A stretch of DNA of 64,000 bases from Escherichia phage vB_EcoM_G2469, in sequence record MK327934.1. One strand, written 5' to 3'. Position numbers and translations under genes: made by a program. Under the pieces are notes generated by a model. The model made no database searches and was not told the DNA's origin. It saw only the letters and a program-made list of their open reading frames with translations. This document shows, one piece after another, positions 1-44,964 of this stretch (the stretch's first letter is position 1; each line of letters starts with the position of its first letter).

Positions 1-299
1 GAATTATTGAAGGCGACCATGGTCCCGGTGATAAATTAGCTGCTAATATACGAGCTGGTTGGATTCCAGGTGTTTCCTCTCGTGGTCTTGGTTCTTTAAC
101 CGACACCAATAAAGGGTACCGTATCGTGAACGAAGGATTTAAATTAACCGTCGGCGTAGATGCCGTATGGGGACCTTCTGCTCCAGATGCTTGGGTTACT
201 CCTAAACAAATATCAGAATCAGAAAATTCGGTGGAAATCACCAAAAACAGTGCTGATGAAGCATTTAAAGCTCTCGCAGAGAGTTTAAAAGCATTATAA
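1..299 (+). CDS. 21: prohead core protease gp21, C-terminal fragment (start upstream of window)
   Basis: open frame enters window in phase with nt 3 and stops at TAA 297-299 immediately upstream of gene 22; T4 order 21-22-23. Confidence 0.5.
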   Translation, partial: IIEGDHGPGDKLAANIRAGWIPGVSSRGLGSLTDTNKGYRIVNEGFKLTVGVDAVWGPSAPDAWVTPKQISESENSVEITKNSADEAFKALAESLKAL

Positions 300-302
300 A
301 TA
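295..302 (+). promoter_or_regulatory. late promoter (TATAAATA) for gene 22
   Basis: exact TATAAATA about 30 nt upstream of gene 22 ATG. Confidence 0.5.
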
Positions 303-332
303 ATAATGTAATCTAAACCACAGGACACTAAA

Positions 333-1145
333 ATGATCAAAGAACAACTTTTGAAAGAAGCTCAGAATATCGAGACTTCAGTTGCTCTTAATAGTGTTTT
401 CGAATCAGTAGAACTGTCTCCGGACGTTAAAGCTAATTTCAGCACTGTATTCGAAGCCACCGTTAAGCAGGAAGCAGTCAAACTAGCTGAATCTCATATC
501 AAAGCTATCGCCGAAAAAGCCGAAGAAGAAGTTGAAAAGGCTAAAGAAGATGCTGAAGAGAAAGCTGATAAAAAATTGGCTGAACAAGCTTCTAAATTCC
601 TAGACCATCTTGCAAAAGAATGGCTCGCAGAAAACCAAATCGCAGTTGATAAAGGCATTAAAGCTGATTTGTTCGAATCCATGCTTGGTGGTCTGAAAGA
701 ACTGTTTGTTGAACATAACGTTGTTGTTCCAGAAGAATCTGTAGATGTTGTAGCAGAAATGGAAGAAGAGCTGGCCGAACATAAAGAAGAAACCGCTCGT
801 TTGTTCGAAGAAGTTACCAAACGTGATGCATATATCAATTACGTTCAGCGTGAAACCGCTATTAATGAAAGCGTAAAAGACCTGACTGAATCTCAGAAAG
901 AAAAAGTTATTGGCCTGGTTGAAGGTATGGATTATTCTGACGCATTTGGTACTAAGTTAACTGCTATTGTAGAAATGGTTAAAGGTTCTACTAAAGAAGA
1001 AGCCGCTATTACCGAAAGTATAAATACAGTTGACAATGACGCTGCCGGTCTTAATTTTGTTGCCGAAGCAGTTGACACTACCACAACTCAGGTAGAACAG
1101 AATTCTAATGTAAGTTTATATGCGAAAGTCGCATCTCGTTTCTAA
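333..1145 (+). CDS. 22: prohead core scaffold protein gp22
   Basis: 270 aa, acidic/Lys-rich coiled-coil scaffold, C-terminus ...VYAKVASRF as T4 gp22; position upstream of 23. Confidence 0.85.
   Translation: MIKEQLLKEAQNIETSVALNSVFESVELSPDVKANFSTVFEATVKQEAVKLAESHIKAIAEKAEEEVEKAKEDAEEKADKKLAEQASKFLDHLAKEWLAENQIAVDKGIKADLFESMLGGLKELFVEHNVVVPEESVDVVAEMEEELAEHKEETARLFEEVTKRDAYINYVQRETAINESVKDLTESQKEKVIGLVEGMDYSDAFGTKLTAIVEMVKGSTKEEAAITESINTVDNDAAGLNFVAEAVDTTTTQVEQNSNVSLYAKVASRF
1019..1026 (+). promoter_or_regulatory. candidate late promoter inside gene 22 for gene 23
   Basis: TATAAATA within 3' part of gene 22, about 140 nt upstream of gene 23. Confidence 0.35.
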
Positions 1146-1162
1146 TTTAAAGGTTAACACAA

Positions 1163-2731
1163 ATGACTACTATCAAAACTAAAGCTCAGCTCGTAGACAA
1201 ATGGAAAGAACTGCTGGAAGGTGAAGGCCTGCCGGAAATCGCTAATAGCAAGCAGGCTATTATCGCTAAAATCTTCGAAAACCAGGAAAAAGATTTCGAA
1301 GTATCCCCTGAATATAAAGACGAGAAAATCGCTCAGGCATTTGGTTCTTTCTTGACCGAAGCTGAAATTGGTGGTGACCATGGTTATAATGCTCAGAACA
1401 TCGCAGCAGGTCAAACCTCTGGTGCAGTAACCCAAATTGGGCCGGCAGTTATGGGTATGGTTCGTCGTGCTATTCCTAATCTGATCGCTTTTGATATTTG
1501 TGGTGTTCAGCCTATGAACAGCCCGACCGGCCAGGTATTTGCTCTCCGTGCAGTATATGGTAAAGACCCTATCGCTGCTGGCGCTAAAGAAGCTTTCCAT
1601 CCGATGTATGCCCCAGACGCGATGTTCTCTGGTCAGGGTGCTGCTAAGAAATTCCCAGCTCTGGCTGCTGACACTACTACTGTTGTAGGTGATATCTATA
1701 CTCACTTCTTCCAAGAAACTGGTACTGTATATCTGCAAGCTTCTGCTGTCGTAACACTTGATTCTGGTGCAACTGATGCAGCTAAATTAGATGCAGAAGT
1801 TAAGAAACAAATGGAAGCTGGTGCACTGGTAGAAATCGCTGAAGGTATGGCTACTTCTATCGCTGAACTTCAGGAAGGTTTCAACGGTTCTACCGATAAC
1901 CCATGGAATGAAATGGGCTTCCGTATCGATAAACAAGTTATCGAAGCTAAATCTCGCCAGCTGAAAGCTGCTTACTCTATCGAATTAGCACAAGACCTCC
2001 GTGCAGTACACGGTATGGATGCTGATGCTGAACTGAGCGGTATTCTGGCTACAGAAATTATGCTAGAAATCAACCGTGAAGTTGTTGATTGGATTAACTA
2101 CTCAGCACAGGTTGGTAAATCTGGTATGACCCTGACTCCGGGTTCTAAAGCTGGCGTATTTGACTTCCAAGACCCGATTGATATCCGTGGTGCTCGTTGG
2201 GCCGGTGAAAGCTTTAAATCTCTGTTGTTCCAGATTGATAAAGAAGCAGTTGAAATTGCTCGTCAAACCGGTCGTGGTGAAGGTAACTTCATTATCGCTT
2301 CCCGTAACGTAGTTAACGTACTGGCTTCAGTTGATACTGGTATTTCTTACGCTGCACAGGGTCTGGCTTCTGGTTTTAATACCGACACTACTAAGTCTGT
2401 ATTTGCCGGTGTACTTGGTGGTAAATACCGCGTATACATCGACCAGTATGCTAAACAGGATTACTTCACCGTTGGTTACAAAGGCGCTAACGAAATGGAT
2501 GCAGGTATTTACTATGCTCCTTACGTTGCACTTACCCCGCTGCGTGGTTCCGATCCTAAGAACTTCCAGCCGGTAATGGGCTTTAAAACTCGTTACGGTA
2601 TCGGTGTTAACCCGTTTGCTGAAAGTTCCCTGCAGGCTCCAGGTGCTCGCATCCAGTCCGGTATGCCATCTATCCTGAACAGCCTTGGTAAGAACGCTTA
2701 CTTCCGCCGTGTATATGTAAAAGGCATCTAA
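1163..2731 (+). CDS. 23: major capsid protein gp23
   Basis: 522 aa; N-terminus MTTIKTKAQLVDKWKELLEGEGLPEIANSKQAIIAKIFENQEKDFE and overall sequence match T4 gp23. Confidence 0.97.
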   Translation: MTTIKTKAQLVDKWKELLEGEGLPEIANSKQAIIAKIFENQEKDFEVSPEYKDEKIAQAFGSFLTEAEIGGDHGYNAQNIAAGQTSGAVTQIGPAVMGMVRRAIPNLIAFDICGVQPMNSPTGQVFALRAVYGKDPIAAGAKEAFHPMYAPDAMFSGQGAAKKFPALAADTTTVVGDIYTHFFQETGTVYLQASAVVTLDSGATDAAKLDAEVKKQMEAGALVEIAEGMATSIAELQEGFNGSTDNPWNEMGFRIDKQVIEAKSRQLKAAYSIELAQDLRAVHGMDADAELSGILATEIMLEINREVVDWINYSAQVGKSGMTLTPGSKAGVFDFQDPIDIRGARWAGESFKSLLFQIDKEAVEIARQTGRGEGNFIIASRNVVNVLASVDTGISYAAQGLASGFNTDTTKSVFAGVLGGKYRVYIDQYAKQDYFTVGYKGANEMDAGIYYAPYVALTPLRGSDPKNFQPVMGFKTRYGIGVNPFAESSLQAPGARIQSGMPSILNSLGKNAYFRRVYVKGI

Positions 2732-2755
2732 TCTTAATTGATTAAATCTTATTTT

Positions 2756-2780
2756 GGGAGACTTCGGTCTCCCATTTTTG
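2756..2780 (+). terminator. intrinsic terminator after gene 23
   Basis: GGGAGAC-TTCG-GTCTCCC hairpin followed by ATTTTTG. Confidence 0.6.
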
Positions 2781-2783
2781 GTT

Positions 2784-3053
2784 TTATTTCTGTGCAATTT
2801 CGATGTAAGTTTTCAAAATATTTTGCCAATTAGGCATACCTTCTTGGACATATGCCGGAGAACCATCTTTGTTTTTGAATGATGCAAGTTTATCAGTGGC
2901 CCAATAACCTTTAGCTCGAGCTTCAGAACCAACTTTCATCCATACTTTGTTGAAGGCATTACCATTAACTTTTGCACCATATTTTTCTACTAACTTAATT
3001 GCTTCAGCTTCCAGAACTTTTAAAGTATCTCGTAAGAAACGTGCTTTAGTCAT
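2784..3053 (-). CDS. hypothetical protein (89 aa) at the position occupied by segD in T4
   Basis: ORF with upstream early-promoter-like motif; no recognisable domain. Confidence 0.5.
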   Translation of the reverse strand: MTKARFLRDTLKVLEAEAIKLVEKYGAKVNGNAFNKVWMKVGSEARAKGYWATDKLASFKNKDGSPAYVQEGMPNWQNILKTYIEIAQK

Positions 3054-3081
3054 TTTGTTTACTCCTCTGTAGTTGATAAGT

Positions 3082-3113
3082 CTATAGTATCACATACCAA
3101 ATACGTTGTAAAC
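3082..3113 (-). promoter_or_regulatory. T4 early-type promoter (minus strand)
   Basis: plus-strand CTATAGTA ... about 18 nt ... GTAAAC = reverse complement of GTTTAC -35 / TACTATAG extended -10. Confidence 0.45.
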
Positions 3114-3119
3114 AATCTT

Positions 3120-3127
3120 TATAAATA
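3120..3127 (+). promoter_or_regulatory. late promoter for gene 24
   Basis: TATAAATA about 28 nt upstream of gene 24 ATG. Confidence 0.5.
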
Positions 3128-3154
3128 ATCTATATCACATAAGGAAAAAATGCA

Positions 3155-4438
3155 ATGAGTAAAATCCAAAAATTATTGCGTGAATCTACAACGTCTACTA
3201 GCAACTCAATTGGTCGCCCAAATCTCGTTGCTTTGACTCGCGCTACGACTAAATTAATATATTCTGACATTGTAGCAACACAAAGAACTAATCAACCTGT
3301 TGCTGCTTTTTATGGTATCAAATATCTTAACCCGGATAACGAATTCACATTTAAAACTGGTGCTACTTATGCTGGCGAAGTTGGATATGTAGACCGAGAA
3401 AAAATTACTGAACTCACAGAAGAATCAAAAGTCACACTAAATAAAGGTGATTTTTTCAAATATAATAATATCGTCTATAAAGTGTTAGAAGATACACCAT
3501 TTGCAGATATTCAAGAAAGTGATCTAGAATTAGCTCTTCAGATTGCAGTCGTTCATTTAAAGGTACGGTTATTTTCAGATGCAGCGGTAACAAGCAAATT
3601 TGAAAGCTCTGATAGCGAAATTTCTGATGCAAGATTCCAGATTAATAAATGGCAAACTTCAGTCAAATCTCGCAAACTTAAAACTGGTCTCACGGTTGAA
3701 TTAGCGCAAGATTTGGAAGCGAATGGATTTGATGCCCCTAACTTCTTAGAGGATTTGCTTGCTACTGAAATGGCTGATGAAATTAATAAAGATATTCTTC
3801 AGTCTTTAATTACTGTATCGAAACGTTATAAAGTTACTGGAATTACTGACACCGGATTTATTGACTTGAGCTATGCATCCGCTCCAGAAGCAGGTCGTTC
3901 ATTATATCGAATGGTGTGTGAAATGGTATCACACATTCAAAAAGAGACAACTTATACTGCAACGTTTTGTGTAGCCTCAGCTCGTGCAGCTGCTATTCTT
4001 GCTGCTTCCGGTTGGTTAAAACATAAGCCAGAAGATGACAAGTATCTTTCACAAAATGCTTATGGATTCTTGGCAAATGGATTACCTCTTTACTGCGATA
4101 CCAACAGTCCGTTAGATTATGTTATTGTTGGTGTTGTAGAAAATATCGGCGAAAAAGAAATTGTAGGGTCCATCTTTTATGCTCCATACACTGAAGGAGT
4201 AGATTTAGATGACCCGGAACATGTTGGTGCATTTAAAGTTGTAGTTGATCCAGAAAGCTTGCAACCGTCTATCGGATTATTGGTTAGATATGCTTTATCA
4301 GCAAATCCTTACACAGTAGCAAAAGACGAAAAAGAAGCGAGAATAATTGATGGTGGGGACATGGATAAAATGGCAGGACGTTCAGACTTGTCTGTTTTAC
4401 TCGGTGTTAAATTGCCTAAAATTATTATAGATGAATAA
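3155..4438 (+). CDS. 24: capsid vertex protein gp24
   Basis: 427 aa, gp23 paralogue, T4 synteny. Confidence 0.93.
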   Translation: MSKIQKLLRESTTSTSNSIGRPNLVALTRATTKLIYSDIVATQRTNQPVAAFYGIKYLNPDNEFTFKTGATYAGEVGYVDREKITELTEESKVTLNKGDFFKYNNIVYKVLEDTPFADIQESDLELALQIAVVHLKVRLFSDAAVTSKFESSDSEISDARFQINKWQTSVKSRKLKTGLTVELAQDLEANGFDAPNFLEDLLATEMADEINKDILQSLITVSKRYKVTGITDTGFIDLSYASAPEAGRSLYRMVCEMVSHIQKETTYTATFCVASARAAAILAASGWLKHKPEDDKYLSQNAYGFLANGLPLYCDTNSPLDYVIVGVVENIGEKEIVGSIFYAPYTEGVDLDDPEHVGAFKVVVDPESLQPSIGLLVRYALSANPYTVAKDEKEARIIDGGDMDKMAGRSDLSVLLGVKLPKIIIDE

Positions 4439-10026: not shown

Positions 10027-10251
10027 TTATACAACTCTCATATGCATATCAATGCCCATATCTTTAGAATAAAAATATTCATCAAGATATCCGGCAAATT
10101 TTCCTTTAATATAAAGGACATCTTCACCACACGGGTGGTCTGCCAGGATACGAATATCCTGACGACGTAGACGATACTTTTCCATTAAGAATTTAATTTC
10201 AGTTTCAAATTCTTCATCATTATTAAAGGCATCTTCAATTGAATAACGCAT
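10027..10251 (-). CDS. hypothetical protein (T4 uvsY.-1-like)
   Basis: 74-aa ORF, ATGA overlap with uvsY stop. Confidence 0.5.
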   Translation of the reverse strand: MRYSIEDAFNNDEEFETEIKFLMEKYRLRRQDIRILADHPCGEDVLYIKGKFAGYLDEYFYSKDMGIDMHMRVV

Positions 10252-10664
10252 TATTGCCCCGCTTCAAATTCTCGCATATCCTGGATATGTTTAAGTGCAA
10301 AACTACGAGACTTAACTGCGTCAAGTGCACCACTACAGAACTCAAGTAAAATTCCCCAGTATTGTAAAGTAGTCTCTATTTTAAGCACATCTTTATCTGC
10401 AGCCAAGACAGTTTTCATTTCAGATTTCTCATATCGGTCCATACTGAATTCATCACCGTCACCTCGTCCCGAGTAGTAGTCTAATCTTGCTTTTAGAGCA
10501 GTTTTCTTCTTAGTCTCTATACGCAACATTTCTTTACGAATAAATGAGTGCTTACGTAGCCATTTGCTGTATAACTTAACATTATTCGCCGTCTCATATT
10601 GCAACTTTGTCATATCAATAGCTAAGTCTGCGTCTAACTCTTCCTGTAAATCTTCCAGCTTCAT
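10251..10664 (-). CDS. uvsY: UvsY recombination mediator
   Basis: 137 aa from internal ATG (MKLEDLQEEL...), matches T4 UvsY length and sequence; track ORF extends upstream from a non-ATG start. Confidence 0.88.
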   Translation of the reverse strand: MKLEDLQEELDADLAIDMTKLQYETANNVKLYSKWLRKHSFIRKEMLRIETKKKTALKARLDYYSGRGDGDEFSMDRYEKSEMKTVLAADKDVLKIETTLQYWGILLEFCSGALDAVKSRSFALKHIQDMREFEAGQ

Positions 10665-10744
10665 AATGTTCTCTCTTTTAACTAATAATCTCCCGGCTGT
10701 ATCGGAAGGACCTAAAACCATTATACATATGTTGCCTTGAAGCA

Positions 10745-11143
10745 TTACACTCTATTGCTTGACGCTAACTGAAGTTTAATTTGTTCAATATCGTCAGGGT
10801 TGTCTATGACCGAAAATCTAATCTCTACTATAACCGTATAGTCGTCATATACTGGCGTTACACTTACAGAAAGTTTGTCGATGCGTGGCTCATAGTTACG
10901 AACAGCTGCCTGGATATTACGCTCAATCGTATCGGCTGTAAGTGGTGTCATGTTCTCGAAAAGTTCATCAACCAAATCGCATCCAAATTCAGGGTCGAAG
11001 GGGCGCGAGCCTTTTCTAGTTGTCACTATGCCAAGAAGACTATTTTTAATAGAACGAAGTCCTACAGAACGAGCAACGTCCTTGTTCCAATCCATACGCA
11101 TTTCTGGGTCGATATCTGAATAAAGTTTATTGATATTAGACAT
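10745..11143 (-). CDS. 25: baseplate wedge protein gp25
   Basis: 132 aa, matches T4 gp25. Confidence 0.9.
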   Translation of the reverse strand: MSNINKLYSDIDPEMRMDWNKDVARSVGLRSIKNSLLGIVTTRKGSRPFDPEFGCDLVDELFENMTPLTADTIERNIQAAVRNYEPRIDKLSVSVTPVYDDYTVIVEIRFSVIDNPDDIEQIKLQLASSNRV

Positions 11144-18453: not shown

Positions 18454-20540
18454 TATCCTTGGACAAATTTAAACGGAACTGATTCTAAATCCATTAAAGA
18501 TGCTAACAATTTCAAACCTTTAGGTGCACTAGTTTTTTCTACAAATGAGGAGAACGATACCGGCTCAACTGATTCGATTTCACCCGTCATAGCAACCACC
18601 TCGCCTGTTTCCATGAGAACATCACCATCGTAAATGACAGCTTCATCTAACTGGTCTGAGGACATGACTTCAGCTTGAATAAATTTAAGGTTGGATTCTA
18701 AACCTGCACCAGTGTCAGATGACGCATCTGTAATTTTATTTATCTGCAAGAGAATGCCTCTAGGCAAAATAATTTCTTGCTCATTAGGGTGATTACTCAA
18801 CTGTCCCGGATAAATCACGTTAACTTTATGGGCGCCATCAATAGCCCATCCAACGTTAACACGGATTTGTTCTGGTGCATGCATAGCTGTTCTTACTTGA
18901 CTAGGAGAAATAGTAACACCTTCGTCATTATTGTCAATGTTAAGCTCTTTGCGAACTTCTTCAGGAGCAAGTCCAAGGGCAACGTTCTCTTTAAACCCAC
19001 CGAAAATAATAGGAGCTAGTGAAGTGGAAACATAGTTTCTGAAATAGAATACCTTATTTTTAACCATTGCTTCGTAAATAGGCATTCTGATAGACTGAGC
19101 TCTATATAACGTTAGTCCTTCAGGTAAACGGTCTCCATTTAAAAACGCCGAATCAAGACCATCAATAGCGCGTTTAACTTCATCTTCATCTGCAACATCG
19201 TAAAAATCTGGTTTATAACGACCTAACAACATATTATTGATATCGGTATACGCAGAAGAGGCATATTCACGAATAGCTCGTTTTTCAGCAACAGAGTATT
19301 GTTTAGGGTCCCGATTCATTGTTATATTAAAGGTGCCTCTAGCCGATTCTCGTGCATAAGTATACATCACATTAGACAAGAACGCTGATTTACGTTGTTT
19401 CCAAGTTTTTTCAGATACTTCAGCTAAAACATCGTCGGCCAGTTGGAAATTATCACGTCTAAAATCTTCAAACCATTCGTCTTTAATAGAGTCTGCAATT
19501 TCATTTGCAGCTTCAACAAAAGCAGCTAATGCTTTAACAGATGTTGTTTTTTCAGTTTTAATTTTCTTAGCAAACTTTTCTAAAGTTGGCTTAATAACAC
19601 TACCATAAGAAACTTCATCAGCAAATCTAAAGGATTCATCAATACGATTATAAATCTTATTTTCGATATCAGCAACTAAAGTGCCTTTTGCTGTGGATGA
19701 TGCTTGGGCCAGTACGATTTCATATGCTTCAGGAAGTAATTCGGCTGTAGCTGGGCCACTAACTTCTTTAGCAGAATTTTCGTATTTCTGGAATAACTCA
19801 CCTTCTTGTCGGTCAGCTTCTAAAGATTGACTTGCTGCAATAGCACGACGAGAAATTTTAGTACGAGCAATAACAGGCTTATCTTTACGTTTTTCTTCTA
19901 CAGCAGCAATAGAACCAGCGATAGCCGTTTCTTTGGTGACCTTTTCGCCGGTCTTTTTACTCACATAAACTTCGCCAACATCAGAATCTACTTTCGTGTA
20001 CAACTCTGTGTTAATGTTAGGGATGCCTTTAATATCTTCAATGTTGGCATTTTTACGAACCATCATCACATAGGTGTGTTTACCTGTGAATTGATACATT
20101 GCCGACAATACTTTAAAACGACCACCGGTTTTAGTAGAAACTAAACGAGCAAGAAGAGTTTGAAGCTGCTGACCACGTCCTTTCAATTTCTTGGTAGGGA
20201 ATCGGAACAGAACTGCATCCATACGAAGAGCTTTAACCTGTTCATATACTGTATTGAAAATGGTGTTGATTGCATCAATAGGAGCAGGACCAAGGCCATT
20301 TTTCAATTCAGCGAGATTACCCTTTTCAGACAGACTCATAATAACAACATGAGCGTATTTGTCGCCAAGTTTAACTTGTTTTACGGCGTCGCCTTCGGAA
20401 AGGTAAGAGAATAAACGAACTACGATGTTTGTATCGATATCACCAATTTTCCAGACTTGTGGAACTTTAGCTTTAGGGTTCAAATTGACGACAGGAAGAC
20501 TGCCTTCAGATTCAAACACTTCATTTAATTGTTCAGACAT
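18453..20540 (-). CDS. alt: Alt ADP-ribosyltransferase (virion-injected, modifies host RNA polymerase)
   Basis: 695 aa, position between 54 and 30, similarity to T4 Alt. Confidence 0.85.
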   Translation of the reverse strand: MSEQLNEVFESEGSLPVVNLNPKAKVPQVWKIGDIDTNIVVRLFSYLSEGDAVKQVKLGDKYAHVVIMSLSEKGNLAELKNGLGPAPIDAINTIFNTVYEQVKALRMDAVLFRFPTKKLKGRGQQLQTLLARLVSTKTGGRFKVLSAMYQFTGKHTYVMMVRKNANIEDIKGIPNINTELYTKVDSDVGEVYVSKKTGEKVTKETAIAGSIAAVEEKRKDKPVIARTKISRRAIAASQSLEADRQEGELFQKYENSAKEVSGPATAELLPEAYEIVLAQASSTAKGTLVADIENKIYNRIDESFRFADEVSYGSVIKPTLEKFAKKIKTEKTTSVKALAAFVEAANEIADSIKDEWFEDFRRDNFQLADDVLAEVSEKTWKQRKSAFLSNVMYTYARESARGTFNITMNRDPKQYSVAEKRAIREYASSAYTDINNMLLGRYKPDFYDVADEDEVKRAIDGLDSAFLNGDRLPEGLTLYRAQSIRMPIYEAMVKNKVFYFRNYVSTSLAPIIFGGFKENVALGLAPEEVRKELNIDNNDEGVTISPSQVRTAMHAPEQIRVNVGWAIDGAHKVNVIYPGQLSNHPNEQEIILPRGILLQINKITDASSDTGAGLESNLKFIQAEVMSSDQLDEAVIYDGDVLMETGEVVAMTGEIESVEPVSFSSFVEKTSAPKGLKLLASLMDLESVPFKFVQG

Positions 20541-34512: not shown

Positions 34513-35015
34513 TTAGAAATATTTTTTGTATGAATTGATTACATTTTGGTCTACATCATTATCAATTTGTGCGACAAGATAAGAACTGATTTCAACTTCT
34601 TGTGGGGCTGCTTGAACCAAATCAGAGTTCAAATACTCACGAATCCATGGAATAGGATGACGAGTTGATACGTCTTTAAGAGGACATGGCAGACCACAAC
34701 TACGCATACGAGACACGGTAAGATAATCCACAAATTCACTTAGGATTTTAACATTTAGACCTGGAAGAGCACCATCTTTAAACAAGTGTTCAGCCCATTC
34801 TTTTTCTTGAGCGTTAACTTCCATGAAAATATCAACTGCTTCTTGTTCACACTCTTGAGCAATTTTGACCCATTCATCACCGTCTTCGCCATCTTGTAAA
34901 GCACGAATAATATATTGAGTGCCCTTGAGGTGGAGCTGTTCATCACGAGCAATGAACTTCATAATCTTGGCATTACCTTCCATGATTTCCATATTCTTGT
35001 GGAAGTTAAAGGTAC
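34513..35015 (-). CDS. nrdB: ribonucleotide reductase small subunit NrdB, exon 2
   Basis: encodes ...TFNFHKNMEIMEGNAKIMKFIARDEQLH... to C-terminus; second E..H iron motif. Confidence 0.8.
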
Positions 35016-36106
35016 CGTTATGTTCGATTGAGCTCGCTAATTCTCAACCCGTTCTCTTATGAACTGCTACATATTACTATGCAGACCAGACTATATCACA
35101 ATCCCAGAGGGATTCTCCCCATTTCGAGTCGCTTGACCCTACGTCCGAAGACTAGTCGTTGAACCTTGCTTTGCAATTGTCGCCGTGCCATCGTTTATAT
35201 GTTGATGGTGATAAATCTTTCTTATCACAATATGGACAATTCAATTGAATTCTATTTGGATTTAATTTACATCTGTCATTATGTTTTAGATAAAATCCAG
35301 GACCTTTACCAATGTGACCGCAGAAATCACATGTGATTTCTTTTTGTGCAGGATGGGTCCCGTTCTTAACCATTTCTAATGTTTTTGCTGATGTTCTTTT
35401 CTTATGGTCTTCTGACAAGAAATGATGTGAACCGTCATTTACCCGTTTTGATTGAGTTTCTGACTGCATTTTACCACCGCAAAATACATGAGTACCTTCT
35501 TTTATAGCTGCAATATTGCGTTCTTTAACTTTTGCAATATGCTCAGCTTGTTGAAAATTATGTATACCTAATGCAACTCTATTTAAATTAGATTTACGCT
35601 GTATTTCACCGTCTAAAAGATGAAATGTACCATTTTCTATCTTAGATTTAATAGAGGCAATATTTTTAGCTCGTACTTCAGGGATATTAAAAATCTGGAT
35701 TTCTCTAGATTTTGCGGCTTTAGAAGCTAATTCAGAAATTTCTTCAGGAGAATATTTCATTCTAAGCTTTATAGCATGACAAGCCTGGTAATCTTTTTGA
35801 GCTAAATGTATATCATAATGTTCCTGTATAGAAAGGCACATCAAATTATCTAAATCATTATTTTCACGGTTACCGTCTTTATGATGGATTTCGTATGTTC
35901 TTCCATCAGAATCTTTAGGTATAGGTCCGTTAGCATCTATCCAAATTTTTCTATAGTTCAATTGTGCATCCTCTTAAAAGTATAATCATATTTATATTAT
36001 ACTAATTAAAGGTGCAAGCAAAACCTTGGCTGCTAGTTTTCCTATAAAGGACTTTCCAGCAATTAAAGGAGTTTTCGATAAACGTTACCGTTTAAAGGCG
36101 CATTTT
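35016..36106 (-). mobile_element. group I intron in nrdB (about 1091 nt) carrying I-TevIII
   Basis: exon 1 frame stops immediately after ...RFYVSFA; 3' region shares core (TCGAGTCACTTGACCCTAC...GAACATAA(C/T)G) with the td intron; proposed junctions follow 5'-exon U and terminal G rules. Confidence 0.75.
35152..35961 (-). CDS. I-TevIII: I-TevIII HNH homing endonuclease, full length (269 aa)
   Basis: HNH motif EIHHKDGNRENNDLDNL, C-terminal Cys-rich zinc finger; apparent TTG start after AAGAGGA RBS. Confidence 0.85.
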   Translation of the reverse strand: MNYRKIWIDANGPIPKDSDGRTYEIHHKDGNRENNDLDNLMCLSIQEHYDIHLAQKDYQACHAIKLRMKYSPEEISELASKAAKSREIQIFNIPEVRAKNIASIKSKIENGTFHLLDGEIQRKSNLNRVALGIHNFQQAEHIAKVKERNIAAIKEGTHVFCGGKMQSETQSKRVNDGSHHFLSEDHKKRTSAKTLEMVKNGTHPAQKEITCDFCGHIGKGPGFYLKHNDRCKLNPNRIQLNCPYCDKKDLSPSTYKRWHGDNCKARFND

Positions 36107-36782
36107 ACGCAAAAGATACATAAAAACGAATAGCTTCTAAGGCATTAATAACGTGCAAACAGAGGTAAAGAGATTTCATTAGCTCACGCTTCCAATATGT
36201 CTCATGCTCAATAGCATCTTCAATAACGTCTTCGTCTGCATTAATTTCTTTTTGGTATTCGATATCAGCTTTAGCGTTTTCCCAATAACGAGCTTTAACC
36301 AGAACATCATCATAATATCGTCCGATAGATTCGGCACGCTTCATAATAGCTTCATCTAATACAATCTCATCAAACACCTTCGATGGATCTGTATAAAGAT
36401 TTCGCATAATATGAGTATATGAACGAGAGTGAATAGTTTCACTGAAAGTCCATGTAGCAACCCATGTATCTAATGAAGGGTCTGAAAGCAATGACATAAG
36501 TACCGCAGATGGTGCTCTACCTTGGATAGAATCTAATAATGATTGATACTTAAGGTTGTTGGTAAAGATGTCCTGTTGGAACTGTGGAAGCTTATTAAAC
36601 TGGGCCGAATCCAACATCAAGTTTACTTCCTCGGGACGCCAAAAGAACGAGAGCTGCTTTTCGATAAGCTCTTCAAAAACTTTATGACGCTGAATATCAT
36701 ACCGTGCGAGGCCAAGACCAGAACCAAAGAACATCGGTTCATTCAAAACATCGACTTGTTGTGTGTTAAAAACTGTACTCAT
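36107..36782 (-). CDS. nrdB: ribonucleotide reductase small subunit NrdB, exon 1
   Basis: MSTVFNTQQVDVLNEPMFFG...EAIRFYVSFA; class Ia R2 motifs. Confidence 0.85.
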
Positions 36783-36836
36783 TATATTTCTCACTTAGTT
36801 ATTAACTCATCCATGAGTAAATTATAATAAAAAGTC

Positions 36837-39092
36837 TTAAAGCTTACAAGCAGAACAATCTTCTGCTTTAGGTGTTTCTAATTCATAGTCGTCTGTACCA
36901 GACCCATCACGAGTGTTATGATAGTAGAGGTTTTTTCCGCCAAAGTACCAGAAGTAAAGCAGATCGTCAAGCATTACTGACATTGGCACTTTACCTTTCT
37001 CAAATACTGCAGGGTCATAGTAAGTATTAGCAGAAGCAGATTGGCACACCCATTTCAACATGATAGCAACTTGGGTCAAATAAGGTTTATTACCTTTCTT
37101 AGCAAGTTTCCACGCGTAGTCGTAAAGACTCATGTTATGTTCGATATTAGGAACAACCTGTCGGAAGTTGCCTTCTTTAGATTCTTTAATACTTACTGGA
37201 CCACGTGGGGGCTCAATCCCGTTTGTAGAGTTCGATACTTGACTGCTTGACTCACAAGGCATGAGTGCAGACAACGTTGAGTTACGAATTCCATGTTCTT
37301 TGAGTTCAGCTCGAAGTTCTTCCCAGTCACAGACGTAGTTCGGGGCTGCGATTTGGTCAATCTTTTTATTGTACCAGTCGATAGGTAATTCGCCTCTAGA
37401 CCATTTAGTGTCTGAATAATACTCACAACATCCTTTTTCTTTGGCGAGTTTGATTGATGCTTTGATAAGGCCATATTGCAATCTCTCAAACAATTCATGA
37501 GTCAAATCGTTAGCATCTTCATATGACGCAAAGTTAGAAGCTAACCATGCAGCATAGTTCGTAACACCAACACCAAGATTACGACGCTTTTTAGCTTTTA
37601 AAGCTTCTGGAACCGGATAATCTTGATAGTCTAACAAGTTATCAAGTGCACGTACTTGTACTTCAGCAAGTTCATTAATTTTATCTTGGTCTTGCCAATC
37701 AAATTTATCTAATACAAAAGCAGATAATGTGCATAAACCAATTTCAGCATCAGGCCCATTCACATCATTAGTTGGAATAGCGATTTCACAACATAAGTTA
37801 CTCTGACGAATTGGAGCTTTTTCACGAATAAACGGAGTGTAGTTATTCGTGTTATCAACAAACTGTGGATAAATTCGAGCAGTACCAGAGCGTTCAGTCA
37901 TGAACAATTCAAAGAGTTCTAGTGCTTTGATTCTTTTCTTTCTGATTGTTGGGTCTTTTTCAGCTTTCTCATAAAGCTCACGGAATTTATCTTGATCTTC
38001 AAAGAACGAGTAGTATAGTTCGCCTGACATTTCGTGAGGGCTAAATAAAGTAATATAATCATTTTTACCAAGGCGTTCCATCATAAGGTCATTAATCTGA
38101 ATTCCGTAGTCCATATGTCGAATACGGTTTTCATCCACGCCTTTGTTATTTTTCAGAACTAATAGGTTCTCTACTTCTAAGTGCCACATCGGATAATACG
38201 CTGTAGCAGCACCACCACGAATACCACCTTGAGAACAAGATTTTACTGCAGTTTGGAAATGTTTCCAGAATGGAATAACACCCGTATGTCGAACTTCACC
38301 CATACCGATCTTAGAACCTTCTGCACGAAGCATACCAACGTTGATACCGATACCAGCTCGTTTAGAAATATATTCAATAATTGATGCTGAAGTTTTGTTA
38401 ATAGATTTTAACGAATCACCGGCTTCAATAACTACACAACTAGAGAACTGGCGAGTCGGAGTACGAGCACCTGCCATAATTGGGGTTGGCAATGAAACTT
38501 GATGAGTAGAAACGGCATCATAAAAACGAATAATATGTTTCAAACGGTCATGAGTTTCGTCTTGATGTAAGGCCATACCAATAGCCATGATAGCAAACTG
38601 TGGAGTTTCATAAATCTTCCCAGTTGTTTTATCTTTAACTAGATATTTTTCTTTAAGCTGCATAGCACCAGCATAAGTCAGGTCAAAGTCTCGTTCATGT
38701 TTAATCTGTGAATCGAGATAAATGATTTCTTCTGCTGAATATTGAGACAACAGCTCAGGGTCATATTTGCCTTCATTAACACAATAAGAAATATGGTCGA
38801 TAAAAGCAGGCGGTTCAAACTGCCCATATACATCTTTACGAAGTGCAAACATTAGCCCTTTGGCGGCGACATACTGATAATCAGGTTCTTCGACAGAAAT
38901 CGAGTTAGCTGCAACTTTAATACAAATCTTCTGGATATCTTTGGTGCTCATCCCGTCGACAAGATGGGTCTTAATTTCTTCGTACAATTCATATGGATCA
39001 ATTTGTGTTCCTTCACATTGCCAAGTTAAGACTTGAATAATTTTCTGTGCATCAAAATTTTGGGATACACCACTGCTCTTAGTTACTTGCAT
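36837..39092 (-). CDS. nrdA: ribonucleotide reductase large subunit NrdA
   Basis: 751 aa, C-terminal CxxC...KL tail, T4 synteny. Confidence 0.95.
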   Translation of the reverse strand: MQVTKSSGVSQNFDAQKIIQVLTWQCEGTQIDPYELYEEIKTHLVDGMSTKDIQKICIKVAANSISVEEPDYQYVAAKGLMFALRKDVYGQFEPPAFIDHISYCVNEGKYDPELLSQYSAEEIIYLDSQIKHERDFDLTYAGAMQLKEKYLVKDKTTGKIYETPQFAIMAIGMALHQDETHDRLKHIIRFYDAVSTHQVSLPTPIMAGARTPTRQFSSCVVIEAGDSLKSINKTSASIIEYISKRAGIGINVGMLRAEGSKIGMGEVRHTGVIPFWKHFQTAVKSCSQGGIRGGAATAYYPMWHLEVENLLVLKNNKGVDENRIRHMDYGIQINDLMMERLGKNDYITLFSPHEMSGELYYSFFEDQDKFRELYEKAEKDPTIRKKRIKALELFELFMTERSGTARIYPQFVDNTNNYTPFIREKAPIRQSNLCCEIAIPTNDVNGPDAEIGLCTLSAFVLDKFDWQDQDKINELAEVQVRALDNLLDYQDYPVPEALKAKKRRNLGVGVTNYAAWLASNFASYEDANDLTHELFERLQYGLIKASIKLAKEKGCCEYYSDTKWSRGELPIDWYNKKIDQIAAPNYVCDWEELRAELKEHGIRNSTLSALMPCESSSQVSNSTNGIEPPRGPVSIKESKEGNFRQVVPNIEHNMSLYDYAWKLAKKGNKPYLTQVAIMLKWVCQSASANTYYDPAVFEKGKVPMSVMLDDLLYFWYFGGKNLYYHNTRDGSGTDDYELETPKAEDCSACKL

Positions 39093-39435: not shown

Positions 39436-39747
39436 TTATACCGCCATTTTAGCTTTGATAGCTGGATGTGATTCGTAATTTTTAAGAACGAAATCAGAAT
39501 GTGTCATTGTTCCAGTAACCCAGTCCATTTGGATTTTTGTAGGCCAATTCTCAAAATTACTAGGCCAATTAATTTCAAGAGAACATAACTCTTTAGGTTC
39601 ACGACGAAGAACTTCTTTGCATTGTTCTACATGATTGCGGTAGATATGCGTGTTGCCGCCTGAGAACACTAAATCACCTGGGATAAGGTTACACATCTTC
39701 GCTACAATATGCGTCAAGGCAGCGTAAGAGGCAATGTTGAACGGTAG
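39436..39747 (-). CDS. td: thymidylate synthase, exon 2
   Basis: begins CTACCGTTCAAC (LPFNIASY...) immediately after intron terminal ...CATAATG. Confidence 0.9.
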   Translation of the reverse strand, partial: LPFNIASYAALTHIVAKMCNLIPGDLVFSGGNTHIYRNHVEQCKEVLRREPKELCSLEINWPSNFENWPTKIQMDWVTGTMTHSDFVLKNYESHPAIKAKMAV

Positions 39748-40763
39748 CATTATGTTCAGATAAGGTCGTTAATCTTATCCCGGAATTATATCCAGCTGCA
39801 TGTCACCATGCAGAGCAGACTATATCTCCAACTTGTTAAAGCAAGTTGTCTATCGTTTCGAGTCACTTGACCCTACTCCCTAAAGGGATAGTCGTTAGGC
39901 ATTTATGTAGAACCAATTCCACTTATCAGATTTTACACGGTAAGTAACTAATCCTGATGAAATTTCAAAATGTCTAGCCGCATCGGCTGCACATTCAAAA
40001 ATAATCCCATCGCATGAAATCTTTTTGATGTTAGCTGGCTTTTTGCCTTTCATCTTTTCAGATAGTTTAGTTTTAGTTTTTTCTGAATGTTTGTGATTAA
40101 AGAACGGGTTATTTTCACCTGAACGTTTTCGGCACTTTCCACAAGTATCGGCCGAAGATGGTATGCGAACACCGCATTTACAAAACTTGTGGTTTTCTGG
40201 ATTCCATCGGCCATTTTTACTTCCGTGTTTACCATAAAGAGCTTTCCGACCATCAGGACCAAGCTTAAGCATCTTAACTTTAACAGTTTCAGCTCGTTTC
40301 TTAGCAATTTCTTCTTTTAATGGATGATTTGAAAGCACATCGCCAAAAGACGCATCAGCAATATTATATCCATTAATTTTAGAATTTAGCTCTTTAATCC
40401 AAAAATTTTCTCGTTCAATAATCAAATCTTTCTCATACGGAATTTCTTCCAGTACAGAGCATTCAAAAACATTACCATGTTTATTAAAAGACCTTTGAAA
40501 TTTTATAGAAGAGTGAACACCGTTTTCAAGGTCTTTAAAATGTCTCTTCCATCTTTTCTCAAAATCTTTAGCACTTCCAACATACACTTTACCGTTTAAA
40601 GTGTTTTTAATCTGATAAATTCCGCTTTTCATAAACACCTCTTTTTATATAGAAGTATTTATTAAAGGGTAGTCCTACAATTTAGCACGGGATTGTCTAC
40701 TAGAGAGGTCCCCCGTTTAGATAGATTACAAGTATAAGTCACCTTATACCTAGGCCTAAATTA
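39748..40763 (-). mobile_element. group I intron in td (1016 nt) carrying I-TevI
   Basis: 5' end TAATTTAGGCCTAGGTATAAGGTGACTTATACTTGTAATCTATCTAAACGGGG and 3' end ...CTGAACATAATG match the T4 td intron; same length as T4. Confidence 0.9.
39895..40632 (-). CDS. I-TevI: I-TevI GIY-YIG homing endonuclease
   Basis: 245 aa MKSGIYQIKNTLNGKVYVGSAKDFEKRWKRHF..., near-identical to T4 I-TevI. Confidence 0.92.
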   Translation of the reverse strand: MKSGIYQIKNTLNGKVYVGSAKDFEKRWKRHFKDLENGVHSSIKFQRSFNKHGNVFECSVLEEIPYEKDLIIERENFWIKELNSKINGYNIADASFGDVLSNHPLKEEIAKKRAETVKVKMLKLGPDGRKALYGKHGSKNGRWNPENHKFCKCGVRIPSSADTCGKCRKRSGENNPFFNHKHSEKTKTKLSEKMKGKKPANIKKISCDGIIFECAADAARHFEISSGLVTYRVKSDKWNWFYINA

Positions 40764-41312
40764 ACCTAAGAAAACATCTACACTGCGTTGATACCATTGT
40801 AAATCAAGATGTCCATTACGCACATTAAATTGATAGAACATATGACAAGGAGGAAGAGCCATTTGGTCAATTTCGGCTGGGTTCCATGCAGAAACTATTT
40901 GACGACGATCATTAGGAAGAGCTTTAATGCGGTCGATAGTTTTGACCAATTGGTCTACACCACCAAAATCACGCCATTGCTTACCATAAATAGGACCAAG
41001 TTCGCCGCTATGATATCCAAGGTCTTTTGCCTGATTTTCATAGTTGTCGTCCCAAATAGTTTTACCTTGAATAAGACTACCATGAGTACGAATACGCAAA
41101 TCATTAACATTGGTAGAACCAGACATGAACCACAGTAACTCGGCAATACAAGCTTTCCATGCTAATTTCTTAGTTGTTACTGCAGGAAATCCTTTAGTAA
41201 GGTCCCAACGTAATTTAGTTCCGAACAGGGCAATAGTGCCGGTACCTGTACGGTCGTCTGTTTCGTAGCCATTTTCTAAGATATCTTTAATCAGGTATTG
41301 GTATTGTTTCAT
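40764..41312 (-). CDS. td: thymidylate synthase, exon 1
   Basis: MKQYQYLIKDILENG...QRSVDVFLG followed directly by intron. Confidence 0.92.
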
Positions 41313-43975: not shown

Positions 43976-44629
43976 TTAATACTTACATGATTTGATTGTT
44001 TCTATGAACAATTTCTTAGCAGCATTTCCATCGATTTGAAGTATTTTTCGATATGCCTTTAATTTGGTAGAATAATTTTGCCAGACTAAGTTATCGGTGA
44101 GTTCGTCGTGCTTATCTATAATATTCAAAAATGAGTCCAACAATAAGAAAGTTTCAAATGAAATTATATTGCTTTGTAGCAATTTAAATATGTAGCTCGA
44201 CTGAACTTTATTATTATAATCAAATATCTCTTGAAGCGCACTAACTTCAACTTTCTTACTGAAATAGTAGATGTTACGTACGTCTTCAGCAAACGTCTCC
44301 TTGGCTTGTTTGAGACGTCCAATATATTCCCTATAGAAAACTAATGCATCAGCGTCTGATATCTCACCAATCCATGCGTCTTGGTTAGCAACTAAGTTGC
44401 TTATGAATATCAAGGTGAGTTCCTTCAATTTATATTTCTCTGCTAGTTTTTCAAAGAAATATTTATCTCGGCGTTTTTGATACGCATTATCCGAAACACG
44501 CATGCACCAGTTATATTTGATTACGTCATACCGACCATTAAAATGTTGTTTGCACATCAAGTATAGTTTGTATACCGATTTTCCGTTAATATAACGTTCT
44601 CCATCAGGAGGCATGCGTATTTTAATCAT
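43976..44629 (-). CDS. 59: gp59 helicase loader
   Basis: 217 aa, synteny. Confidence 0.85.
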   Translation of the reverse strand: MIKIRMPPDGERYINGKSVYKLYLMCKQHFNGRYDVIKYNWCMRVSDNAYQKRRDKYFFEKLAEKYKLKELTLIFISNLVANQDAWIGEISDADALVFYREYIGRLKQAKETFAEDVRNIYYFSKKVEVSALQEIFDYNNKVQSSYIFKLLQSNIISFETFLLLDSFLNIIDKHDELTDNLVWQNYSTKLKAYRKILQIDGNAAKKLFIETIKSCKY

Positions 44630-44964
44630 AATAAGAAATCTAACGTATTAGTTTTTTCACCACGAGCAACTGATGGGCGAAGCATGTTTTCGTCAATTGC
44701 TTCGCTTGTAATTTTTTCAACAATTCCTGTAGGAATAAATTTAGCAAATTGTGTTTCTGGAATAGAATTTTCTTCCAAGAAAGCAGTTGTTGCTTCTAAA
44801 TAAGACATACCAAATTGTTCAACCATGGATTCGATAATGAATCCGTTTTCTTGTCGGTCAAGCAATTTAGCGATATCATCTTTATCGTGTTTTACTGCTA
44901 ATTCTTGTTCAGATAAACCGGCCTCATCAACCGGTTTAATATCACTTAGTGAAAACTGTGTCAT
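44626..44964 (-). CDS. 33: gp33 late transcription co-activator
   Basis: 112 aa, synteny. Confidence 0.8.
   Translation of the reverse strand: MTQFSLSDIKPVDEAGLSEQELAVKHDKDDIAKLLDRQENGFIIESMVEQFGMSYLEATTAFLEENSIPETQFAKFIPTGIVEKITSEAIDENMLRPSVARGEKTNTLDFLL

Follow-up and report, generated by a model that had tools for sequence, protein, structure and literature searches.

In a 64,000-nucleotide (nt) stretch of DNA from Escherichia phage vB_EcoM_G2469 (MK327934.1; the whole stretch is called the window), we found that the gene nrdB is interrupted by an RB3-type group I intron carrying an intact homing endonuclease gene, I-TevIII, a reading to which we give a probability of about 95%. The host gene encodes the small subunit of the aerobic ribonucleotide reductase of a T4-like (Mosigvirus) phage. 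The anatomy of the region, the splice junction, the sequence identity to known elements, the conservation of critical residues, purifying selection, and signs of horizontal transfer were established directly from the window and its relatives. An nrdB intron with I-TevIII is already known, and the RB3-type element has been characterized both genetically and biochemically. The features of the region are listed in Table 1.

From its ATG, the nrdB frame reads as far as ...EAIRFYVSFA and then meets a TAA composed of the exon base T36107 and the intron bases AA. The gene resumes in a downstream open reading frame (ORF) of 159 amino acids (MEIMEGNAK...) that ends at position 34513. An earlier model-made reading of the letters (the sequence-only reading) had described this interruption, with resumption about 1.09 kb on, and its coordinates were all correct. 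Excision after U36107 and after G35016, the splice sites that it proposed, takes out 1,091 nt and leaves an in-frame ORF of 1,179 nt. The product is a 392-residue NrdB in restored frame. Specifically, the spliced protein reads ...VSFA-C-TFNFHKNMEIMEGNAK..., with the Cys codon divided T/GT (here and below, a slash marks the exon join). The ligated RNA is predicted to read ...UUUGCGU-GUACCUUU..., joining the exons at GCGU/GUACC.

Naturally intronless genes provided a base-by-base comparison for this junction. Using megablast with the predicted spliced nrdB, we identified intronless alleles in the sister Mosigvirus phages JK42, APCEc01, p000y, JK36, moha, and F31, with 99.7% identity over all 1,179 nt in one ungapped piece. 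There were three differences in JK42 and four in APCEc01 across the 1,179 nt, with no insertion or deletion. Three of these were common to both phages, at -4 and -1 in exon 1 and at +2 in exon 2, and all were synonymous (window positions 36103..36111 and 35013..35016). At the junction itself, the intronless alleles read TTCGCAT/GCACC versus TTTGCGT/GTACC in the window. The JK42 and APCEc01 genes thus follow the join of exon 1 to exon 2 base for base, as the proposed splice sites predict. Exon 2 begins with G but the intron with A, and exon 1 ends with T but the intron with G, so no splice junction displaced from this position fits the intronless alleles.

Protein homology led to the same join. 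The R2 protein of Escherichia coli aligned without gaps across it, with FACTFNF opposite FACSFAF (phmmer, E = 3.6e-128 against 7ai8_A and 1rib, residues 3-388), which confirms the conserved Cys of class Ia R2 that splicing had been expected to recreate. Class Ia R2 (NrdB) features were present in the FAC.F segment, the EGNAK...RDE..H iron-ligand region, and homology to the full length of E. coli R2.

The intervening sequence has the predicted structure of a group I ribozyme. When helices were mapped by hand, P1 to P6, P6a, P7, P7.1 (UUCG loop), P7.2, P8, P9 (GUAA loop), P9.1, and P9.2 were all fully complementary. The group I rules invoked for the proposed splice sites were borne out by the U-G pair in a 4-bp P1 (GCGU/GCGC), the intron-final G, and the complementarity from P1 to P9.2. 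This terminal base, G35016 (omega-G), stands directly before the GUACC of exon 2. Compensatory changes occur in related introns: one from A-U to G-C in P2 of the phage S16 nrdB intron, and others from A-U to G-C and from G-U to G-C in P9 of the T4 nrdB intron. In addition, the 5' stretch of the intron before the TTG start codon of I-TevIII, which lies outside the ORF, is about 97% identical to that of S16, while the synonymous divergence (dS) of the ORF is 0.57. Such conservation is consistent with constraint on the ribozyme. The intron matches that of RB3 at 99.9% of positions and is homologous to the T4 nrdB intron, which splices itself (PMC2790892); on this basis, it is predicted to undergo guanosine-dependent self-splicing. 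The I-TevIII ORF sits in the P6a loop. Its UAG stop codon (35154..35152) falls inside P7/P7.1, and about 15 codons at its end are shared with ribozyme helices, namely P6a and P6 (3' strands) and P7 (5' strand).

The sequence-only reading described an intact 269-residue HNH endonuclease with a C-terminal zinc finger inside the intron. The ORF (35961..35152) matched the Pfam family HNH_3 at residues 4-48 (E = 6e-13; 48.7 bits versus a cutoff of 24.8), and its product was identical to RB3 I-TevIII at 268 of 269 residues, the sole difference being D23Y. When residues are counted from the TTG, H26, H27, N39, H48, C211, C214, C242, and C245 coincide with the sites of the mutations made by Robbins et al. 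2007 (PMC1865063). In the RB3 enzyme, H26A, H27A, N39A, and H48A each abolish cleavage (PMC1865063). All of these mutationally defined residues are intact in the window, and we found no inactivating change among them. The zinc finger was correctly placed at the C terminus, but its number was not: there are two CX2CX12-13HX3C fingers, starting at C211 and C242. Relative to the 89%-identical S16 ortholog, the ratio of nonsynonymous to synonymous divergence (dN/dS) was 0.12, with little variation from one third of the ORF to the next. By this measure, the ORF is under purifying selection. The claim that I-TevIII is full length and potentially mobile is therefore supported by near-identity to a homing-competent enzyme, by the intact residues, and by dN/dS. 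Full-length I-TevIII was recovered by tblastn, with matches spanning at least 80% of the ORF, in at least 87 records from Escherichia, Shigella, Salmonella, Yersinia, and Klebsiella phages, most of them at least 95% identical.

The central DNA-binding region of I-TevIII (residues ~110-205; ~35345..35635) contains about five tandem repeats of ~24-28 residues. They start with G-[T/S/I]-[F/H]-[H/N/V/P], usually followed by F (NGTFHLL, LGIHNFQ, EGTHVFC, DGSHHFL, and NGTHPAQ). No Pfam family matched these repeats; the record of one relative labels the protein "NUMOD3 motif protein." A Pfam match to the anti-sigma-28 family FlgM at residues 74-114 (35620..35742; 26.2 bits versus a cutoff of 25, E = 9e-6) was judged probably spurious, the segment being a charged helical linker.

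The TTG start predicted for I-TevIII is already annotated in two RB3 records (X59078 and KM606994), and published residue numbering agrees with a count from it. We therefore rejected the start as a new observation. Its surroundings were exactly as predicted: AAGAGGA precedes it by 7 nt, and five codons upstream there is a TAA (35976..35974) in the same frame. The TTG is also kept in the diverged S16 intron, although neighboring codons vary. The Shine-Dalgarno (SD) sequence lies in a hairpin, and the 101-nt stretch that holds it (36040..35940) folds, as a whole, with a free energy of -19.1 kcal/mol (z = -2.3). The 18-nt segment TTTTGCTTGCACCTTTAA matches the spliced homing site TTTTGCGT/GTACCTTTAA at 16 of 18 positions, a score equaled by 0.1% of shuffles. 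This segment is a putative operator for I-TevIII autorepression (PMC2988022).

Because the intron is 99.9% identical to that of RB3 while the exons are only about 79% identical (133 + 116 = 249 of 1,179 positions differ), the comparison indicates lateral transfer by homing across lineages. The three synonymous differences from the intronless alleles probably mark a co-converted tract. Such a tract spans at least -4 to +2 and must include the -14/-16 cut site; with an RB3-like donor, its outer limits would be -75 and +17. At +17, +23, and +83, AV111, another intron-plus Mosigvirus phage, carries the donor's type of base and the window does not, so tract lengths vary among lineages. The G at -1 completes a G-C pair of P1; the A found at this position in the intronless allele would be mispaired. 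It is possible, and we offer this tentatively, that the junction bases represent both an unusually short co-conversion tract (6 to about 90 bp) left by recent cross-genus homing and a functional requirement (the -1 G for P1), and that the intronless variant could be partly resistant to I-TevIII as a homing site and thereby restrain additional spread among Mosigvirus phages. The distribution of intron and exon types also fits the patchy occurrence of introns among T-even phages that Sandegren and Sjoberg reportedly described in 2004. The intron-plus and intron-minus sister alleles offer a clean natural example of homing with very short exon co-conversion.

Several observations weigh against the reading of an RB3-type intron with an intact I-TevIII. 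One concerns the enzyme: residue 23, three residues before the catalytic HH, is Y rather than the D of the biochemically characterized RB3 protein. The others concern the ribozyme. At gathering thresholds, an Rfam scan of the whole window matched no family. A permissive scan gave RF00028 at 33.9 bits (E = 1.5e-6), below the gathering score of 50; the alignment was sensible for the 3' core alone, its 5' half being misplaced into the endonuclease ORF. We attribute the low score to the 810-nt ORF insertion, which splits the model; the td intron of the same window, used as a positive control, scored alike. Other weak Rfam matches (rseX, ceN113, S15 leader, and Atu_L1; E values of 0.7-7) were dismissed as chance. 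The null scan could be taken to mean that nrdB is truly split or decayed, yielding two polypeptides or a pseudogene around an inserted free-standing endonuclease with no RNA splicing, and several records do annotate two separate nrdB coding sequences (CDSs; "beta subunit"). Yet all group I hallmarks are present, and the intron is, outside the ORF deletion of T4, near-identical to the self-splicing T4 nrdB intron (PMC2790892). Moreover, the second CDS would start at an internal Met and lose the conserved Cys and the segment aligned to FNF of E. coli R2. We regard a split gene as extremely improbable.

The substitution at residue 23 bears on whether the intron might splice while its endonuclease is inactive or immobile in this lineage, a vertically inherited passenger, either through D23Y or because intronless Mosigvirus alleles are poor targets. 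Only one enzyme has been tested biochemically, and the window protein differs from it by one residue; similarly, at -4, -1, and +2 the intronless sister alleles depart from the homing site used in those tests. However, Y23 is the commoner allele among phage records, and many records in the band of at least 99% identity match the window except at the start codon (tblastn). An inactive enzyme also fits poorly with a dN/dS of 0.12 that extends over all three thirds of the ORF. Vertical descent is countered by a near-identical intron in ~79%-identical exons, which indicates recent lateral spread, and by co-converted flanks of different length in the window and AV111, which imply repeated homing or recombination. 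Loss of activity or mobility is thus unlikely. Less likely still is translation of I-TevIII from its first in-frame ATG (M41), which would produce a 229-residue DNA-binding protein without most of the HNH motif. In favor of this start, TTG rarely serves as an initiation codon, and the automated annotation of the closest relative, 348Ecol098PP, uses M41 (a 690-nt CDS at 10082..10771 of the retrieved stretch). However, no SD precedes M41, whereas the strong AAGAGGA precedes the TTG, which is conserved in S16. H26, H27, and N39 lie upstream of M41, would be lost from such a protein, and are under purifying selection, and both the RB3 records and the published mutant numbering fit the TTG.

Under the preferred reading of an RB3-type intron with an intact I-TevIII, splicing and cleavage in this phage would proceed as expected from near-identity to the T4 and RB3 introns and to the RB3 enzyme. 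The nrdB pre-mRNA would fold into a group I core, and exogenous guanosine would attack after U36107, held in the U-G pair of P1. The freed exon 1 would then attack after G35016, and the ligated exons would encode the 392-residue NrdB, with Cys regained where they meet. I-TevIII would be silent in early and middle transcripts, its SD buried in the hairpin. Late transcripts would start at the TATAAATA promoter within the hairpin loop, leaving the SD free for translation from the UUG. By homology to RB3, dimeric I-TevIII would use its two zinc fingers to bind intronless nrdB over the insertion site, and its cuts, 14 and 16 bp upstream, would generate 2-nt 3' overhangs. The recipient nrdB would then acquire the intron, together with a little of the adjoining exon sequence, by double-strand-break repair.

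Table 1. Features of the interrupted nrdB gene and of the td intron in the window
Feature	Position	Strand	Description and evidence
nrdB exon 1	36107..36782	-	676 nt; ATG at 36782; ends with U36107, which opens the split Cys codon; colinear with the intronless nrdB of JK42 and APCEc01
nrdB exon 2	34513..35015	-	503 nt including stop codon; colinear with intronless alleles; E. coli R2 alignment
Group I intron (T4-type, IA2-like)	35016..36106	-	1,091 nt; predicted to self-splice; starts AAAAUGCGCC, ends ...CAUAACG (terminal G 35016); 1 nt from RB3; partial RF00028 match; helices P1-P9.2
P1	36098..36110	-	Exon GCGU (36110..36107) paired with intron GCGC (36101..36098); 4 bp; U36107-G36101 wobble at 5' splice site
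5' half of ribozyme core	36014..36094	-	P2, P3 5' strand, P4, P5, 5' strands of P6 and P6a; compensatory P2 change in S16
3' half of ribozyme core	35026..35174	-	3' strands of P6a and P6, P7, P7.1, P7.2, P3 3' strand, P8, P7 3' strand, P9, P9.1, P9.2
I-TevIII ORF	35152..35961	-	269 residues, TTG start; HNH_3 match, intact residues; same start as RB3 records X59078 and KM606994
HNH catalytic motif	35818..35886	-	Codons H26, H27, N39, H48; residues present; RB3 mutants (PMC1865063)
Zinc finger 1	35269..35331	-	C211-x2-C214-x12-H227-x3-C231; pattern match; PMC1865063
Zinc finger 2	35173..35238	-	C242-x2-C245-x13-H259-x3-C263; pattern match; PMC1865063
Shine-Dalgarno sequence	35969..35975	-	AAGAGGA, 7 nt before TTG
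T4 late-promoter consensus	35989..35996	-	TATAAATA; in loop of SD-sequestering hairpin; same arrangement for I-TevIII in PMC2988022
RNA hairpin	35965..36016	-	GCACCUUUAA...GUAUAAU with AUUAUAC...UUAAGAGGAUGC; predicted to hide SD in long (pre-mRNA) transcripts; folding and PMC2988022
Putative operator-like copy of homing site	36006..36023	-	TTTTGCTTGCACCTTTAA versus spliced junction; I-TevIII operator in PMC2988022 likewise putative
td intron, group I	39748..40763	-	1,016 nt; I-TevI (GIY-YIG); td exons 40764..41312 and 39436..39747; RF00028 36.2 bits, subthreshold

The neighborhood of nrdB differs among related phages. In the window, nrdA (36837..39092) is followed by nrdB after a 54-nt spacer (36783..36836). 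In T4 and RB3, that spacer is occupied by mobE, a free-standing HNH gene that mobilizes the defunct T4 intron in trans and that is absent from the window. An endonuclease gene splits nrdA in AV111 (retrieved stretch 1..1445), and the window is without that gene. In 348Ecol098PP (retrieved stretch 19566..20249), an extra "intron endonuclease" gene lies between genes 59 and 33, where the window has none (43976..44964). Homing-endonuclease content thus varies among the closest relatives.

Annotation of the element is also uneven. Many GenBank records of close relatives (e.g., AV111) give I-TevIII as a "hypothetical protein" or from the M41 start and give nrdB as two CDSs rather than as a spliced join. 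In phage Bp7 (retrieved stretch 1496..3761), exon 1 of nrdB is shorter by 1 nt and the intron by 3 nt, which breaks the spliced frame; the gene is annotated as nrdB, nrdB', and nrdB''. Either the record contains a sequencing error or this copy of the gene is decaying. The verified junction and the TTG start provide the correct gene model for related GenBank records, and beyond correct annotation the finding has little importance.

The RB3 nrdB intron (X59078 and KM606994; PMC1865063) occupies the same insertion site as that of the window, has the same length, and is identical at 1,090 of 1,091 nt, the single G-to-T change being the one that produces D23Y. With the intron one base from RB3, we rejected the idea that it is a novel variant. 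RB3 has the same 269-residue ORF, TTG start, SD, late promoter, hairpin, HNH residues, and two zinc fingers. Its I-TevIII is a dimeric HNH enzyme that binds across the insertion site and cuts 14 and 16 bp upstream to leave 2-nt 3' overhangs; it cleaves intronless nrdB and drives intron homing (PMC1865063). The T4 nrdB intron shares with the window the insertion site, the ribozyme core, and the 5' and 3' ends of the ORF, and it has a few base changes, including the compensatory ones in P9. In contrast, it has lost 491 nt from within the ORF along with two single nucleotides, leaving 598 nt versus 1,091 nt. T4 I-TevIII is therefore the truncated remnant that the sequence-only reading took it to be: it is inactive and annotated as a defective endonuclease, whereas the window copy is intact. 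The T4 intron is self-splicing and depends on MobE for homing in trans (PMC2790892).

The window holds a second mobile-type intron, in td, and the two lie inside 5 kb. This paralogous group I intron has the same layout as that of nrdB, with a looped-out ORF, a late promoter, and an SD hairpin, but its host gene is different and its endonuclease is of the GIY-YIG rather than the HNH type. The I-TevI ORF was listed at 39895..40638 as beginning with GTG, but its true start is an ATG (MKSGIYQIKN) two codons further in. The core block said to be shared by the two introns was clearly present. When aligned, their 3' cores had 77% column identity, including GTAGGGTCAAG.GACTCGAAA and GATATAGTCTG.TCTGCAT, with long identical blocks in P7, P7.2, J8/7, and P9, of which P7 and P7.2 are identical throughout. 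Meanwhile, P1, P2, P3, P4, P7.1, and P8 differ in sequence, yet all still pair. A more distant comparison is I-HmuI of phage SPO1, which, like I-TevIII, combines an HNH module with an extended DNA-binding region and is encoded inside a phage group I intron (PMC1865063). According to the literature, I-TevIII differs from I-HmuI in being a dimer, in making a double-strand break, and in having two zinc fingers.

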